From a virus (lineage: Duplodnaviria > Heunggongvirae > Uroviricota > Caudoviricetes), in the IMG/VR virus record IMGVR_UViG_2529292977_000014: a stretch of 5,162 nt of DNA; one strand, given 5' to 3'. Position 1 is the stretch's first letter. Each line of letters starts with the position of its first letter. Shown one piece after another: positions 466 through 5,162 of this stretch. The notes under the pieces are model-generated. The model was not told the DNA's origin and did not search any database. It saw nothing but the letters and a program-made list of their open reading frames with translations. Position numbers and translations under genes: made by a program.

Positions 466-765
466 ATGAAACTTAAATATTCTGGCTTAACTGCCAGTGG
501 CAACACTCACCCTAAATTTACGCGCGGTGATATTTACCGCGACCAGTACGGCGGCACGGTAATGATTAAGGGCGTGGAAGAACGGCGCGTAACCTACCGC
601 CGTGAAGGTTACGAATATGATTGCGTGATGCCTGTTTATCAGTTCCGGCGTGATTTTTCTCTGGTACAGACCGCGCCGCATAACGTGCCCACCAGCAACG
701 CCAGGGCACGGGCAAACATCCAGAAGCTGAAAACCATGGTTAACGGATTCAGGGGCAAGAAATGA
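466..765 (+). CDS. hypothetical protein, translationally coupled to downstream replication gene
   Basis: ATG at 466 preceded by GGAGA (450-454); 99 aa; its stop overlaps the start of the next gene as ATGA (762-765); basic, Arg/Tyr-rich; no recognisable family. Confidence 0.5.
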   Translation: MKLKYSGLTASGNTHPKFTRGDIYRDQYGGTVMIKGVEERRVTYRREGYEYDCVMPVYQFRRDFSLVQTAPHNVPTSNARARANIQKLKTMVNGFRGKK

Positions 766-2162
766 AAAGCGCACCGAACTTAAAAAAACAGCCTTACGAC
801 AAGATGACCGAAGTCATTATTTTTGCGGGTAGTGATGCCTGGGCACATGCGAAACAGTGGCAGGAACAGGACGGGCGACTGGCTGGCGATAATGTGCCTC
901 CCGTTGTGCTGGCTGATGATCAACTGGATGAACTGGCAGAACTGAGAATCATCGACGAGGGGCGCTATTGTGTCCGGCTGTACAAGGCAGGCCACATCAG
1001 GCCATCAAATATTAATGCCATTGCGCACAAGCTGGCGGCGGCGGGTGTAACTGATGCGAATTATTACCCCGAAGGGATGCACAGCCATATGCGGGAGAAC
1101 TGGCGCGAATACCTGGAACGGGTGCGCGGGAAAGAGCCGGCGGAAGAAAAAAACCACCAGCGAAAAACCACGCTACCGATGAGCGTTGGATCTACCGGAT
1201 ACGACACGCAACTGGATTACGTGGTTAAGGGGATTATTCCGGCGGTATCGCTATGCAGCATATACGGGGCTAGCGGGTCCTATAAATCATTCCTTGCCGG
1301 ATCGTGGGCGTGCCATGTTGCCACTGGTCGCCAGTGGGGAGGCCGCAGGGTTGCACATGGTGCGGTTCTCTATGTGGTTGGTGAAGGCGGTATAGGTGTT
1401 CCGCGTCGTGTAAAAGCCTGGGAGGTTGTGCACGATGAGCAGGTGAAAAATCTGTATCTGGTAAACCGCCCCATCTTTCCGGCTGCCCCGCTTGATGTTG
1501 ATGAAATGGTTATCGCTGCCCGTCAGGTGGAGCGGGAAACGGGTAAACCTGTACGCATGATTATTCTGGATACGCTGGCGCGTTGCTTTGGTGGGAATGA
1601 TGAAAATGATTCCCGTGATATGGGGGCGTTTATCCGTGGTTGTGACGAACTGAAACGACGCACAGGGGCCACGGTGCTGGTGGTTCACCATTCCGGCAAG
1701 GATGAGACGAAAGGCGCGCGCGGTTCCAGTGCATTTCGTGCTTCGCTGGATGCTGAATACCGGATACGCAGGGAGGACGCAGGAAGCGAAGCGCTGGTTA
1801 TCTCATGCACCAAAATGAAGGACGCGGAGGAACTCAAAGAAGCCGCATATGACTTACGCGTGGTGGAGCTTTTTACCGACGCTGACGGTGAATTAATCAC
1901 GTCGCTGGTGGTGGTGGATGATCCGCGCCCTCCTGTTGAACTGGAGCGCATCGAGGAGGCAGGGAACAAGACGGAAAACCATACCGCGCTATGGGGGTGC
2001 ATCCGTTCACGCACACAGAACGGCGACAAGTGCACGATCCCGCTGTTACGTGATGACATGAAAAAGCTGGGGTATGAAATGAAAAACTTCCGGCGCTGGC
2101 TGTACAAGCTGGAAAAAGATGGGGTTATTCGTATCGATGGGGATGATGTAGCGCCGCTATAA
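762..2162 (+). CDS. replication helicase/initiator, RecA-like P-loop NTPase (RepA/DnaB-like, AAA_25-type) with a putative C-terminal DNA-binding domain
   Basis: 466-aa ORF. Walker A GASGSYKS at aa 169-176 (nt 1266-1289); Walker B-like hydrophobic run ending in Asp, MIILD, at aa 266-270; LVVHHSGKDETKGARGSSAF motif at aa 306-325, typical of RepA-like helicases; basic C-terminal region (aa ~400-466) resembles a winged-helix origin-binding domain; iteron array begins at its stop codon. Confidence 0.75.
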   Translation: MKSAPNLKKQPYDKMTEVIIFAGSDAWAHAKQWQEQDGRLAGDNVPPVVLADDQLDELAELRIIDEGRYCVRLYKAGHIRPSNINAIAHKLAAAGVTDANYYPEGMHSHMRENWREYLERVRGKEPAEEKNHQRKTTLPMSVGSTGYDTQLDYVVKGIIPAVSLCSIYGASGSYKSFLAGSWACHVATGRQWGGRRVAHGAVLYVVGEGGIGVPRRVKAWEVVHDEQVKNLYLVNRPIFPAAPLDVDEMVIAARQVERETGKPVRMIILDTLARCFGGNDENDSRDMGAFIRGCDELKRRTGATVLVVHHSGKDETKGARGSSAFRASLDAEYRIRREDAGSEALVISCTKMKDAEELKEAAYDLRVVELFTDADGELITSLVVVDDPRPPVELERIEEAGNKTENHTALWGCIRSRTQNGDKCTIPLLRDDMKKLGYEMKNFRRWLYKLEKDGVIRIDGDDVAPL

Positions 2163-2353
2163 AAGTGAGGAGCAAAAGCGAGGGGGATAGAAAGAGGGCC
2201 AAAATTAGCCCGCTCTCCCTCACTTTTCGACCTGTATACATCCTCAAAAGTGAGGGGTAAAAAAATACTTATGAAACACACACATAGAAAAACCGAAAAT
2301 CCCAACTGCGACGAAGTGAGACGCTTGAAAAAGTGAGGCGAAAAAGTGAGAGG
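2161..2353. repeat. iteron-like repeat array; candidate origin of replication
   Basis: Exact AAAAGTGAGG at 2161-2170, 2246-2255 and 2329-2338; exact inverted copy CCTCACTTTT at 2218-2227; degenerate copies at 2174-2183 (AAAAGCGAGG), 2342-2351 (AAAAGTGAGA) and 2312-2321 (CGAAGTGAGA); A+T-rich tract 2256-2300 between copies; located immediately 3' of the helicase gene. Confidence 0.6.
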
Positions 2354-2362
2354 TTGCGAGAA

Positions 2363-2614
2363 ATGACCCAAAAACGCAGAGACAGAACAGAGCCAAAATA
2401 TAAAGCGTTAGACATGACTGAGCACACCTTAAAGGTGGCAATCAGAACGATAGACCGCCACACGCGGGAAGGATACGCGAAGGAACATCCCGACCTGATA
2501 AGCGCATTCATGACCACGGCGGCGGCAAACTTTGCCACGCTGACAGAACGGGAGATTGCCGAAGCGGAACAGGTAACAACCATCAACGTTAAAACCGGAG
2601 AGGTGGAATTATGA
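2363..2614 (+). CDS. hypothetical small protein, coupled to ssb
   Basis: ATG at 2363 preceded by GAGAGG (2348-2353); 83 aa; stop overlaps the ssb start as ATGA (2611-2614). The six-frame track extends this frame to 2333 (GTG), but the ATG with an RBS is preferred. Confidence 0.5.
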   Translation: MTQKRRDRTEPKYKALDMTEHTLKVAIRTIDRHTREGYAKEHPDLISAFMTTAAANFATLTEREIAEAEQVTTINVKTGEVEL

Positions 2615-3021
2615 CGGCACAGATAGCCGCTTACGGGCGGCTGGTGGACGACCCGCAGGTAAAACAGACCAGCAAGGGCACACCGATGACGCTGGCGCGT
2701 ATGGCGGTATCTTTGCCATGCAGCCAGGCACAGGACGGACAGGCGACGTTATGGTTATCGGTCATCGCATTTGGCAAACAGGCCGGCTTCCTGGCTAAAC
2801 ATCAAAAAGGCGATGTTGCCAGCGTATCCGGCACGATGCAGGTAAGCCAGTGGACCGGACAGAACGGAGAAACGCGGCAGGGCTGGCAGGTTATCGCAGA
2901 CAGCGTAATCAGTGCCCGCGCGGCACGTCCAGGCGGGAACAGACGCAAAACCACAGGCACACAGGGTAATCAGCCACCAGCGGGAGGCGATGACCCTTAC
3001 GGTGATGATATTTCGTTCTGA
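2611..3021 (+). CDS. ssb: single-stranded DNA-binding protein (SSB), short form
   Basis: 136 aa. The N-terminal OB-fold pattern parallels E. coli SSB (GRLVDDPQV vs GNLGQDPEV; LWLSVIAFGKQA vs WHRVVLFGKLA; SQWTGQNGETR vs RKWTDQSGQDR); Gly/Pro/Gln-rich linker; acidic C-terminal tip DDPYGDDISF resembling the SSB DDDIPF tail; RBS GGAGAGGTGG at 2596-2605. Confidence 0.8.
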   Translation: MTAQIAAYGRLVDDPQVKQTSKGTPMTLARMAVSLPCSQAQDGQATLWLSVIAFGKQAGFLAKHQKGDVASVSGTMQVSQWTGQNGETRQGWQVIADSVISARAARPGGNRRKTTGTQGNQPPAGGDDPYGDDISF

Positions 3022-3031
3022 GGGGGTGACG

Positions 3032-3304
3032 ATGGTACATGACCGCATAGCGGAGGAACTGGAGGCGAAAGGCTTTTACCGGAGGGCGGCGGCGCGATGG
3101 GGTGAAGTCATGCAGCTGGTGGAGACAGACAAGGAACGGCATCACATCACGATGCGACGGCTGGAATGTTCAAGGAAGGCACAGAGGGCACCGGAGCCGC
3201 CGGATAATTTCGGAGACCTGAAAAAGGCAGTCGATCGCACTTATGCCGAAATGGGTATAGATGGTGCTGGTGATGAAATATGGCGCAATTACCAGGACAG
3301 CTAA
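3032..3304 (+). CDS. PerC-family-like transcriptional regulator (Pch/PerC homologue), tentative
   Basis: 90 aa; ATG at 3032 preceded by GGGGGTGA; N-terminal motif EELEAKGFYRRAAARWGEVM matches my recollection of the conserved PerC/Pch motif (LE-KG-WRRAA-RW); size typical of the family; followed by an intrinsic terminator. Confidence 0.55.
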   Translation: MVHDRIAEELEAKGFYRRAAARWGEVMQLVETDKERHHITMRRLECSRKAQRAPEPPDNFGDLKKAVDRTYAEMGIDGAGDEIWRNYQDS

Positions 3305-3310
3305 TCAAAC

Positions 3311-3334
3311 AGCCGGAGAAATCCGGCTTTTTTT
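3311..3334 (+). terminator. rho-independent terminator (T1)
   Basis: Stem AGCCGGA (3311-3317) / TCCGGCT (3322-3328) with loop GAAA, followed by a T-run to 3334; 7 nt after the stop of the PerC-like gene. Confidence 0.7.
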
Positions 3335-3430: not shown

Positions 3431-3655
3431 ATGCCGATGAAATTTGATGAGATATTAAAACAGCGTGATAAATACCATGCTGACAACATGGAGACGATGA
3501 GCATCAATGATTACCGCGCATTCCTGGAGACGGGCGCACTGATTGAAAAGGATCAGCATGGTTTTGTGAGATGTGCTCTATCCGGTGAAATGCTGGCGGT
3601 AAATCCTGAACAGATAGATGCATTGATAGAATTTCTGAAAGAGATCAGAGACTGA
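3431..3655 (+). CDS. hypothetical small protein (orphan, terminator-bracketed cargo gene)
   Basis: ATG at 3431 preceded by AGAGGA (about 3416-3422); 74 aa; acidic; own upstream intergenic region (3337-3430) and bracketed by terminators T1 and T2/T3; no recognisable family. Confidence 0.5.
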   Translation: MPMKFDEILKQRDKYHADNMETMSINDYRAFLETGALIEKDQHGFVRCALSGEMLAVNPEQIDALIEFLKEIRD

Positions 3656-3674
3656 GCCAGCACACAGCACACAT

Positions 3675-3697
3675 AGCCGGAGCAATCCGGCTTTTTT
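3675..3697 (+). terminator. rho-independent terminator (T2), near-duplicate of T1
   Basis: Stem AGCCGGA (3675-3681) / TCCGGCT (3686-3692) with loop GCAA, T-run 3692-3697; 26 of 29 nt identical to the T1 region. Confidence 0.7.
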
Positions 3698-3703
3698 GCG
3701 CCC

Positions 3704-3745
3704 AAAAAAAGCCCGATAAGGTCAGAGGGTTCTTATCGGGCTTTT
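3704..3745. terminator. second, possibly bidirectional, intrinsic terminator (T3)
   Basis: A-tract 3704-3710, perfect 10-bp stem GCCCGATAAG (3711-3720) / CTTATCGGGC (3732-3741), 11-nt loop, T-run 3742-3745. Confidence 0.6.
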
Positions 3746-3821
3746 GCATATGAGGTTTTTGGATGCACTGGCGTTCGTGATCGGGATAATCATTTCATAA
3801 TTTGCAACATAACTCAATATC

Positions 3822-3872
3822 ATTGCATAAAATGCAATTCTGATTATAATCAGGACTGGATAAACATCCAGT
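3822..3872 (+). promoter_or_regulatory. candidate repressor- or activator-controlled promoter with three palindromic operators upstream of the capsid operon
   Basis: Consensus -10 TATAAT at 3845-3850 inside a perfect 14-bp palindrome CTGATTATAATCAG (3840-3853); weak -35 TTGCAT (3823-3828, 16-bp spacer) inside palindrome ATTGCA-N5-TGCAAT (3822-3838); third palindrome ACTGGAT-N4-ATCCAGT (3855-3872) near the predicted start site; AT-rich intergenic region following two terminators. Confidence 0.45.
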
Positions 3873-3906
3873 TATGATTTTTTTAGTCGAAGAGGAATTT
3901 CTTACT

Positions 3907-4113
3907 ATGGCTGAAGAGAAAAAAAGCGGTGTTTCGGTGTACATAAGCCCCGAAATCGTGGAGGTGCTCAAGCAGCGCCACAAAAAAAACTATGAAGCTG
4001 GCGTTGCGGCTGGACTGGATCCGCTGATGACGCCGGAGCCGTCGATAGGTTCACTTGTACGCTCTTATTTACTTGCGGCGCTTGGGATGCATAAAAATTA
4101 TGGGGGTGAATAA
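3907..4113 (+). CDS. hypothetical small protein preceding the capsid gene (possible capsid-accessory protein)
   Basis: ATG at 3907 preceded by AAGAGGA (3890-3896); 68 aa; stop TAA overlaps the capsid ATG (TAATG, 4111-4115). The track ORF begins at ATG 3874, which lacks an RBS and sits inside the operator palindrome. Confidence 0.5.
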   Translation: MAEEKKSGVSVYISPEIVEVLKQRHKKNYEAGVAAGLDPLMTPEPSIGSLVRSYLLAALGMHKNYGGE

Positions 4114-5162
4114 TGGCAGGCAAAGCAACGGCACTTAACACTAACCAGCTTTTCATGTACCTGAATCGCGGGGATATTGCGGATTTTAAATTCAGCCCTC
4201 TGTTTACCACGCTGTTTTTCCCGAACGTGGCGACATTCAGCACGCAAAACATCATGCTGGATACCCTGGACATTGAAGAAGTCACCATGTCGGCGTTTTG
4301 TTCGCCTATGGTGGGTAGCCAGGTTCAGCGCGATAAAGGGTACGAAACCAGCACAATCAAACCTGGCTACATGAAGCCAAAGCACGAAATCGATCCAACG
4401 AAAACCATCATGCGCATGGCTGGAGAAGATCCGGCACAGCTTAACGACCCTACCTATCGCCGTATGCGCCTGATTACTGGCAACATGCGCCGCCAGATAA
4501 ACGCCATTAAGGCACGCGTGGAATGGCTGGCGGTGAATGCGGTAACGACCGGAAAAAACATCATTGAGGGCGAAGGCATAGAACGCTATGAAATCGACTG
4601 GAAAATACCGGAAAACTGCATCATAGAGCAGGCCAAGGGTAAAAAATGGTCCGAGCAGGATAAAGACATGCACGACCCAATCTATGACATCGAGCTTTAT
4701 GCTGATCAGGCTGGTTGCCCCGCAAACGTCATGATTATGGGCGCTGAGGTATGGCGCACATTACGCAGCTTTAAAAAATTCCGTGAGCTGTACGATCTTT
4801 CCCGTGGTTCAGAATCCGCCGCCGAACTGGCCTGTAAAAACCTGGGCGAAGTGGTGAGCTTTAAAGGCTATCTTGGTGATCTGGCCCTTATCGTCTATTC
4901 CGGCAAATACACTGACAGCGATGGTACCGAAAAATATTTCCTTGAGCCTGATTTGCTGGTCCTGGGTAACACCAACAATAAAGGGCTGGTGGCCTATGGT
5001 GCGATAATGGATCAGGAAGCGGTAAGAACGGGCGCTGCGGCACTGGGGATGGCGGATATCTCTGATGTGATGATTGCTCAGGGCCTGCTGTTGCCTGCGA
5101 TTGTGGTGCTGGGGCTAAATATCTGGACCACCAACGATAACGCGCTCTATGCGTCGGGTTTA
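4113..5162 (+). CDS. major capsid protein, lambda gpE-like (Phage_cap_E family), 3'-partial
   Basis: Open frame from ATG 4113 to the window end (350 codons, no stop), RBS GGGGGTG at 4102-4108. Strong motif-by-motif correspondence with lambda gpE as recalled: FKFSPLFTTLFF vs FKFDPLFLRLFF; KPGYMKPKHEIDP vs TPGYVKPKHEVNP; DPTYRRMRLITGNMR vs DPAYRRRRIIMQNMR; KWSEQDKDMHDP vs EWSKRDKSTYDP; SFKGYLGDLALIVYSGKY vs SYKGMYGDVAIVVYSGQY; VLGNT in both. Confidence 0.85.
   Translation, partial: MAGKATALNTNQLFMYLNRGDIADFKFSPLFTTLFFPNVATFSTQNIMLDTLDIEEVTMSAFCSPMVGSQVQRDKGYETSTIKPGYMKPKHEIDPTKTIMRMAGEDPAQLNDPTYRRMRLITGNMRRQINAIKARVEWLAVNAVTTGKNIIEGEGIERYEIDWKIPENCIIEQAKGKKWSEQDKDMHDPIYDIELYADQAGCPANVMIMGAEVWRTLRSFKKFRELYDLSRGSESAAELACKNLGEVVSFKGYLGDLALIVYSGKYTDSDGTEKYFLEPDLLVLGNTNNKGLVAYGAIMDQEAVRTGAAALGMADISDVMIAQGLLLPAIVVLGLNIWTTNDNALYASGL

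Follow-up and report, generated by a model that had tools for sequence, protein, structure and literature searches.

In SaPIs, the pathogenicity islands of Staphylococcus aureus, packaging operon I is under the control of LexA (Ubeda et al. 2007, Mol Microbiol 65:41, as cited in PMC6092414 and PMC6739421). EcCICFT073 is a phage-inducible chromosomal island (PICI) that a helper phage induces, replicates and packages (PMC6092414, where the island is EcCICFT073 itself and not the copy found in Escherichia coli O157:H7); its c1499 encodes a capsid homologue, c1500 a decoration protein and c1503 Rpp, the redirector of helper packaging, and AlpA is described as its helper-induced, SOS-independent activator (PMC6092414, PMC6739421). 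Full-text searches turned up no description of the late promoter analysed here or of a LexA box in Gram-negative PICIs; the papers found mention LexA only when they cite the SaPI studies.

Here we analyse the late promoter region of IMG/VR virus record IMGVR_UViG_2529292977_000014, a stretch of 5,162 nt that we call the window. The window belongs to an EcCICFT073-type PICI carried by E. coli O157:H7: genome comparison matches it at 100% identity to many chromosomes of that serotype, and in strain PV15-279 it is contained in an island of ~10.5 kb between roxA and phoQ. We find it quite likely that positions 3822-3872 form the core of a sigma-70 promoter for the late operon (capsid E, decoration, scaffold-like and Rpp/small terminase (TerS)-like genes), joined to an operator of host LexA. 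The identity of the LexA motif, its statistical strength, its position and its conservation are direct observations; that LexA binds there in vivo, where transcription starts and that SOS induces the operon are inferred.

Three palindromes at the predicted late promoter

A reading of the sequence and a repeat finder agree on three back-to-back palindromes (palindromes 1-3; Table 1), which the original prediction, a note made from the letters of the window, had described. Palindrome 2 is, as stated there, a perfect 14-bp palindrome with TATAAT inside it, and palindrome 3 reads ACTGGAT-AAAC-ATCCAGT (3855-3872); palindrome 1 lies where it had been placed, with arms of 7 nt and a loop of 3 nt in place of the 6-nt arms and 5-nt loop given for it. 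Three features had been overlooked: a longer inverted repeat (3848-3861/3866-3879) followed by seven Ts, a 19-nt direct repeat (3789-3807/3819-3837), and the identity of palindrome 3 as a LexA box.

Perfect inverted repeats whose arms have 6 nt or more and whose loops do not exceed 5 nt number 10 in the whole window, three of them packed into the 51 bp of 3822-3872. At least three repeats within 60 bp arose in 4/300 dinucleotide-preserving shuffles of the window, and at least three in 0.6% of 2,000 shuffles of the 161-bp AT-rich intergenic region; this rarity means that the pattern is not expected by chance, and the cluster is real.

The palindromic segment lies downstream of two terminators and 35 nt 5' of the ATG at 3907, which has a good ribosome-binding site, and this placement identifies it as the late-operon promoter region. 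The predicted promoter elements are a -35 hexamer TTGCAT (3823-3828), a 16-bp spacer and a -10 hexamer TATAAT (3845-3850), which match consensus at 3/6 and 6/6 positions, respectively (9/12 together). The -35 is as weak as had been noted (TTGCAT against TTGACA), and a simple promoter scan that required 4/6 per hexamer did not report the pair. A set of 87 related loci, drawn from genomes of E. coli and from IMG/VR contigs, comprises 57 distinct sequences, and in all 57 the TTGC of the -35 and the TATAAT of the -10 are invariant. With two intrinsic terminators upstream, the first-gene ATG 57 nt downstream and invariant promoter elements, the earlier placing of the promoter of a phage-satellite capsid and packaging operon here holds good. 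A palindromic operator adjoining the -10 very probably makes this promoter repressible; that much of the original promoter-plus-repressor idea stands, while the palindrome with an identity is the third, a LexA box over the predicted +1, and not the one around the -10.

A second promoter upstream, TTCATA-18-TATCAT (3794-3823), which would produce a short terminated leader in the manner of lambda pR' and Q, was rejected, its -10 not being conserved (TTTTAT, TACCAT and, in Salmonella, TTGTGT). Inspection of the sequence by eye gave no fit to sigma-54, lambda CII (TTGC-N6-TTGC), IHF, Fur or HipB motifs.

Palindrome 3 matches the LexA box

The gamma-proteobacterial SOS box is CTG-N10-CAG, with the consensus TACTG(TA)5CAGTA (PMC6590174). 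The core of palindrome 3, CTGGATAAACATCCAG (3856-3871), is a dyad-symmetric CTG-N10-CAG, and the 20-mer that contains it, GACTGGATAAACATCCAGTT, agrees with the consensus at 14/20 positions. We scored it with a matrix made from 28 literature boxes of E. coli; five of them (recA, lexA1, lexA2, umuDC and ruvAB) were verified letter by letter in K-12 MG1655. The window site scored 20.8 bits, in the middle of the range of known boxes (12.9-27.1) and above lexA1, lexA2, ruvAB and uvrD; the second-best 20-mer on either strand of the window reached 7.1 bits. A held-out matrix built without the five verified boxes gave the site 20.9 bits, and on K-12 test loci it returned those five boxes as top hits. 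The exact tail probability of the site is 4.8e-8 per position, or 2.7e-7 at the intergenic composition (66% A+T), and a heterology-style index, computed from our own symmetrised matrix and not the original one of Lewis 1994, is 6.2. The held-out matrix also gave 16.4 bits to TGCTGTTTATTAAACCAGAA in the K-12 ycgM coding region (L183 204-223), perhaps a cryptic LexA site, perhaps a false hit of the matrix.

The position of the box is that of an operator: its core begins 5 nt after the -10 of the predicted promoter, so that the predicted start site would be covered, and ends 36 nt before the first-gene ATG. Boxes overlapping the start site were typical of tightly LexA-dependent genes in a single-cell study in Salmonella (PMC8072944).

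The closest known box is that of ruvAB (CGCTGGATATCTATCCAGCA, core CTGGATATCTATCCAG), which shares 13/16 core positions with the window site and differs at three central, tolerant ones; the core of each runs CTGGAT...ATCCAG, which places the two boxes in the rarer G/C (CTGG...CCAG) class. The flanks of the window site, AC...GT, are nearer to the consensus TACTG...CAGTA than are those of ruvAB (20.8 versus 19.3 bits), and whereas the ruvAB box serves a chromosomal repair gene, the window site lies on a mobile element. Taken on its own, palindrome 3 is likely to be an operator at which host LexA binds and regulates.

Beyond the window, in the interval from int to the alpA-like gene of the island locus L001, are two weaker LexA-like sequences: TACTGGATATGCGAACAGAT at 6400-6419 (14.4 bits) and TACTGGTTTTTTATACACTA at 6511-6530 (17.2 bits, with CAC for CAG). 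In published reporter data, alpA is not SOS-induced.

The box is kept in E. coli, Salmonella and Lelliottia islands

A box of at least 17.7 bits stands exactly 53 nt before the ATG in 86/87 loci, the exception having a 1-nt insertion. Variable positions in the 57 distinct sequences sit between four blocks: TTGC, AAAATGCAAT, TGATTATAATCA and CTGGATnAACATCCAG. We reached more distant islands through homologues of the 68-aa first-gene protein and of the capsid protein; two scans of genome contigs, one queried with the capsid protein and one with an alignment of capsids, gave no relatives, and a scan of viral contigs with the Salmonella-type capsid returned mostly the same E. coli loci.

In a second E. 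coli group, whose first-gene protein is 66% identical, the box is AACTGGATGTTCATACAGTT (23.6 bits), and in Salmonella islands, where that protein is 53-55% identical, it is CTGGATGAAAATCCAG (19.5 bits). The Salmonella islands also retain a distal block upstream of the promoter (Table 1), together with TTGCGA-AAAATGCAAC and ATGATTATAATCAT, amid diverged surrounding sequence. A Lelliottia island carries CACTGTTTTTTCATACAGTT (21.5 bits), of the canonical CTGT...ACAG type. In relative L177 the box, TGCTGGATGTTTATCCAGTT (3750-3769; 22.9 bits), has shifted 14 bp downstream and lies 19 nt past the -10, compared with 5 nt in the window. Six Ts stand directly 3' of the L177 box, which together with this run makes a small terminator-like hairpin inside the leader.

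Alternatives to a LexA operator

The LexA-like sequence is also part of a longer hairpin (Table 1), and palindrome 3 might act mainly at the level of RNA, its likeness to a LexA box being secondary: either as a terminator or attenuator (3848-3879 with T7) that blocks early-gene read-through or needs antitermination, or as a 5' hairpin that stabilises the mRNA. The terminator scan flags 3854-3873 with its T-run; RNA from 3840-3890 folds at -16.2 kcal/mol (z -4.25), a value equalled by 0/200 shuffles; the L005 version forms a perfect 14-bp stem of -19.8 kcal/mol; two outer-stem pairs have changed on both sides (T-A, C-G, G-C; GG/CC), with a covariation score matched in 2/500 shuffles; and in L177 the palindrome runs directly into its T6. 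An RNA started from the TATAAT promoter, however, would lack the 5' arm and keep only the inner 5-7 bp, and the fold of 3857-3910 is no better than that of shuffles (z -0.01). As a terminator the long hairpin has its T-run directly after the stem, but it is A/U-rich, carries a G.A mismatch in half of the variants and has its 5' arm upstream of the predicted start; the pair 3853/3874 is unpaired in 14/28 distinct sequences, and from the inner stem to the T-run there is a gap of 5 nt. Two strong terminators already stand upstream, and Rfam gave no family match and nothing near threshold.

The inner stem shows no covariation, and its sole changes (ATACAG in E. coli; CTGTTTTTTCATACAG in Lelliottia) break the pairing while keeping or raising the LexA score: CCAG to ACAG (ATCCAG to ATACAG) and CTGG to CTGT bring the box closer to the LexA consensus at the cost of pairing. 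Across variants the LexA score stays within 17.7-23.8 bits as hairpin energy ranges from -2.8 to -9.7 kcal/mol, and a score that is held while pairing is lost is the signature of a protein operator and not of an RNA stem. We think it unlikely that palindrome 3 serves mainly in RNA. An RNA role is compatible with LexA binding and need not replace it; as an addition, ranked below LexA, the long hairpin is a possible third insulator against early-gene read-through.

A second alternative makes LexA irrelevant and assigns the palindromes to regulators of the satellite or its helper, with a repressor seated on the -10 palindrome and/or activation by, for example, AlpA, the PerC-like protein, the 68-aa product or a late regulator from the helper. 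The clustering of three palindromes beyond chance agrees with it, as do several features of the promoter: the invariance of TGATTATAATCA in E. coli, Salmonella and L177 exceeds the six bases of a -10, the outer pair of palindrome 2 alternates between C-G and A-T, conservation of palindrome 1 and block 3789-3808 extends across genera, the weakness of the -35 hints at an activator, and Rpp-dependent interference on infection implies an SOS-independent route. Yet the symmetry of palindrome 2, whose outer pair varies as C-G, A-T and A-G, is gone in relatives from Lelliottia, Edwardsiella and the capsid-forming PICIs (cf-PICIs), where a -10-like hexamer stays in place. With the symmetry lost and the -10 mostly kept, palindrome 2 is probably promoter sequence, a -10 with constrained flanks, and not an operator; the AATCA in its 3' part doubles as outer arm of the long hairpin.

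The named regulators fare no better. The PerC-like protein, put forward in the original prediction, is not a required activator, since several islands that carry this promoter (L003, L004 and L007) have no gene for it. AlpA sites were sought as motifs of at least 9 nt shared by the late promoter and the int-alpA intergenic region, and there were none. The 68-aa protein has no detectable DNA-binding fold: it gave no Pfam hit at E <10, no PDB sequence hit and no Foldseek match at E <1, and its AlphaFold2 model is beta-alpha-alpha at a predicted local distance difference test score (pLDDT) of 73, so that a ribbon-helix-helix autoregulator is not supported. No similar region turned up in phage records, nothing in this analysis points to the helper-phage-derived regulator that had been suggested, and LexA explains palindrome 3 fully and specifically. 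This alternative thus seems quite improbable for the region as a whole, although a satellite or helper regulator as an additional input at palindrome 1 alone is reasonable.

That the palindromes are accidents of an AT-rich intergenic region around an ordinary constitutive promoter is very improbable: TATA-like short palindromes arise easily at 66% A+T, and the E. coli relatives are so close that conservation among them is weak evidence, but the cluster is rare in shuffles, the LexA match has P ~3e-7 at local composition, and conservation already disfavours chance, the blocks being retained in Salmonella, L177 and Lelliottia despite diverged flanks.

A candidate second input upstream of the box

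The earlier hint that the differing palindromes mean more than one regulator survives, the candidates being palindrome 1 and the segment 3789-3808, both conserved in E. coli, Salmonella, Edwardsiella and Lelliottia. The motif TTGCA-N5-TGCAA of palindrome 1 recurs in Salmonella (GTTGCGAAAAATGCAAC, where the outer pair has changed in a compensated way from A..T to G..C), in Lelliottia (GTTGCATTTTATGAAAC) and twice in Edwardsiella, which makes this motif over the -35 a candidate operator. The Edwardsiella tarda island (L176, ~3650-3794) has the motif duplicated as ATTGCACTTTATGCAAT and GTTGCATGTTATGCAAT, each followed by GATGA, 5' of TATAAT, with no LexA box. The distal block is nearly invariant in the 57 distinct sequences, and its Salmonella version, AATCATTTCATAATTTACAAC, is kept between diverged flanks; it is a candidate site for an activator or an architectural protein. 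Taken together, these two elements have the look of a further regulatory input.

Palindrome 1 and its relatives share ATTGCAT/ATGCAAT with CytR operators (octamer GTTGCATT, or TGCAA-N2-3-TTGCA; PMC3454398), and the exact CytR octamer is present in the Salmonella (reverse strand) and Lelliottia versions. Unlike those of CytR operators, however, the half-sites of palindrome 1 are inverted (TTGCA-N5-TGCAA), and the flanking CRP sites that CytR needs were not seen; we therefore rejected CytR as the factor and regard the likeness as resemblance only.

A predicted SOS switch and what weighs against it

We regard it as quite probable that the late operon is SOS-switched, with LexA at +1. In an undamaged cell, a LexA dimer on the palindrome 3 box would prevent either initiation or escape from the promoter, and read-through from the early genes would be halted by the two or three terminators upstream. 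On DNA damage, active RecA would promote self-cleavage of LexA and the operon would be derepressed; the same SOS signal would induce resident lambdoid helper prophages, so that Rpp and the capsid-related proteins would be present as helper packaging begins.

Several points weigh against this account. The -35 matches at only 3/6 positions, which may mean that an activator is needed, and only five of the 28 boxes behind the LexA matrix are verified ones. The sequence of the box is at the same time the core of a hairpin with a T-run, whose outer stem partly covaries, which allows for an RNA-level role. Islands of Edwardsiella and Cedecea and the metagenome relative L178 are without a LexA box, and cf-PICIs with the same -35 and -10 have none of at least 11 bits anywhere in the locus; LexA control would thus be lineage-specific and dispensable. 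The sole RNA sequencing (RNA-seq) experiment that we found under SOS conditions, with sulfamethoxazole-trimethoprim (SMX-TM) in O157:H7 strain PA20, has the capsid genes of the Sakai Sp7 cf-PICI down 4- to 6-fold; Sp7 carries no box, and the result is not evidence on the present island. A ciprofloxacin study of EDL933 likewise bears on the cf-PICI and not on this island type, and a dam study of CFT073 lists zero island genes. Finally, EcCICFT073 blocks lambda plaques on plain infection in an Rpp-dependent manner, which implies SOS-independent expression of Rpp. Interference by Rpp without obvious SOS means that LexA is not the sole control, or that the promoter leaks, has a second activating input, or is freed by titration of LexA on replicated copies.

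These points leave room for a two-key switch, conceivable but doubtful, in which LexA at +1 would report damage while a second factor, on TTGCA-N5-TGCAA and the -68 to -49 block, would report on the helper or on induction of the satellite itself. During lytic infection, derepression could then come from titration of LexA by hundreds of island copies and not from its cleavage. Such a switch would make the late-gene control logic of Gram-negative PICIs distinct from those of SaPIs and P4.

Gene order and other features of the island

The marks of a Gram-negative PICI of the EcCICFT073 type are the gene order int, alpA, primase/helicase-ori in a single transcription direction, a length of ~10-15 kb, a dedicated attachment site, a late module of a capsid homologue with a TerS-like Rpp, and absent lysis and tail genes. 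The annotation of L001 has the int/alpA/helicase order, an attachment (att) site between roxA and phoQ and the late module, with Pfam and PHROG in agreement. In PV15-279 the order is integrase, AlpA-like helix-turn-helix protein, Icd-like protein, RgdR, helicase, single-stranded-DNA-binding protein (SSB), PerC, a small open reading frame (ORF) and the late operon, which itself runs from a small ORF through capsid, head decoration, Nu3-like (scaffold-like) and TerS-like (Rpp) genes to another small ORF. Homologues of a 501-bp query occur in 593/5426 complete E. coli genomes (~11%).

RgdR, encoded on islands of this kind, is an activator of type III secretion from the LEE (locus of enterocyte effacement; Flockhart et al.). 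Iterons lie just 3' of the helicase gene, the place expected for a PICI replication origin. The start of the 68-aa gene is placed at 3907, an alternative ATG at 3874 not being conserved (variants at 3874-3876).

Table 1. Coordinates of the features of the window, in order of position
Feature	Position	Strand	Basis and remarks
DUF4222 protein, 99 aa	466-765		ORF and Pfam scans; RgdR family (ECs1581)
AAA_25 RepA-type helicase	762-2162		ORF and Pfam scans
Iteron AAAAGTGAGG, six copies	2161-2353		5 direct, 1 inverted at 2218-2227; 3' of the RepA-type helicase gene
SSB	2611-3021		ORF and Pfam scans
PerC-family protein	3032-3304		ORF and Pfam scans
Small ORF	3431-3655		ORF scan; followed by a 250-bp gap to the 68-aa ORF
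Intrinsic terminator AGCCGGAGCAATCCGGCT with T-run	3675..3697	+	Terminator scan, inverted repeat I6; ends the transcription unit of replication genes, PerC and ORF 3431-3655
Hairpin with perfect 14-bp arms AAAAGCCCGATAAG / CTTATCGGGCTTTT	3707..3745	.	Inverted repeat I1; flanked by A-run and T-run
Distal block ATCATTTCATAATTTGCAAC	3789..3808	+	About -68 to -49 from the predicted start; first copy of the 19-nt direct repeat with 3819-3837 (D1)
Palindrome 1, ATTGCAT-AAA-ATGCAAT	3822..3838	.	Left arm holds the -35; TTGC and AAAATGCAA conserved
Palindrome 2, CTGATTATAATCAG, with -10	3840..3853	.	12-bp core TGATTATAATCA unchanged among relatives from E. coli and Salmonella and in L177
Interrupted inverted repeat AATCAGGACTGGAT / ATCCAGTTATGATT with T7 (long hairpin)	3848..3884	+	Inverted repeat I4 and terminator scan; arms 3848-3861/3866-3879, 4-nt loop
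Predicted LexA box GACTGGATAAACATCCAGTT	3854..3873	.	Core CTG-N10-CAG at 3856-3871; contains palindrome 3; overlaps the predicted start at ~3855-3858
Ribosome-binding site GAAGAGGAA of the first late gene	3889..3897	+	Sequence; invariant among relatives
First late-operon gene, 68 aa, c1498 equivalent	3907..4113	+	RefSeq annotation; PHROG 3255 match
Lambda gpE-type major capsid gene, c1499 equivalent	4113..5162	+	PF03864, E 3.5e-42; cut by the window end

Each with a T-run behind it, the near-identical hairpins AGCCGGAG(A/C)AATCCGGCT at 3311-3334 and 3675-3697 close the PerC gene and the small ORF after it, respectively, and look like a duplicated terminator module. The hairpin at 3707-3745 is kept in E. 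coli relatives and looks like a bidirectional terminator that insulates the late operon. A tandem CAGCACA CAGCACA (3658-3671) stands directly 3' of the stop codon of ORF 3431-3655 and is missing or altered in other islands.

Islands that share the late promoter (L003, L004 and L007) vary upstream of it, with PerC present or absent and a DUF927 or D5-type primase replacing RepA; a 415-bp insert sits in the intergenic region of L004 and L007. Late module and promoter therefore move together among different early modules.

Comparison with known systems

SOS boxes and the LexA-controlled packaging operon of SaPIs are known; the putative SOS box at the late promoter of a Gram-negative PICI is new. 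If LexA acts as predicted, the gene rpp and its capsid-like neighbours, in an island family that is very common in E. coli and whose carriers include O157:H7, O26, O145, CFT073-lineage and Nissle strains, would answer directly to SOS, and the timing of the late module would be explained without helper-dependent AlpA. SOS-inducing antibiotics would then prime satellite transfer and helper interference before the helper is induced. EcCICFT073 is being developed into a delivery vehicle whose cargo goes into c1498-c1501, right after the late promoter (PMC10530653, PMC10460865), and such cargo would inherit SOS control.

EcCICFT073 (Fillol-Salom et al. 2018, 2019; PMC6092414, PMC6739421) has the same architecture and chromosomal site, with equivalents of c1498-c1503 behind the same promoter; the promoter of Nissle 1917, of the CFT073 lineage, is 88% identical to that of the window. 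The cf-PICI EcCIEDL933 (Sakai Sp7) has the same attachment site and early genes, and its promoter is homologous through the -10 (window 3705-3859, ~80% identity); that of JNEC-KY176 (L008 3001-3158) shares the second terminator, distal block, -35 and -10 at the same ~80% identity. The cf-PICI differs immediately after the -10, where it has a ~250-nt leader and an HK97-type capsid, so that the recombination breakpoint between PICI and cf-PICI falls at the boundary of promoter and operator. The LexA box may thus be a swappable module, and exchange of the +1 operator a form of modular rewiring.

The late operon would be the Gram-negative equivalent of SaPI operon I, as that operon is cited in the EcCICFT073 papers. 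Both belong to PICI-class elements and carry small-terminase-type and capsid-related genes behind their own promoter with a LexA box, LexA control being demonstrated in SaPIs and predicted for the present island. The box types are distinct, Gram-positive CGAAC-N4-GTTCG in SaPIs versus CTG-N10-CAG here, and the proteins are unrelated (TerS and CpmAB in SaPIs; Rpp and a gpE-type capsid here). Transcription from a promoter further upstream also reaches operon I in SaPIs, whereas the early genes and the late operon of the present island are set apart by two or three terminators. In both, packaging would be coupled to the SOS signal that induces helper prophages while the master switches, Stl and AlpA, are SOS-independent, and LexA control of this operon would extend the rule of SaPI operon I to Gram-negative satellites.

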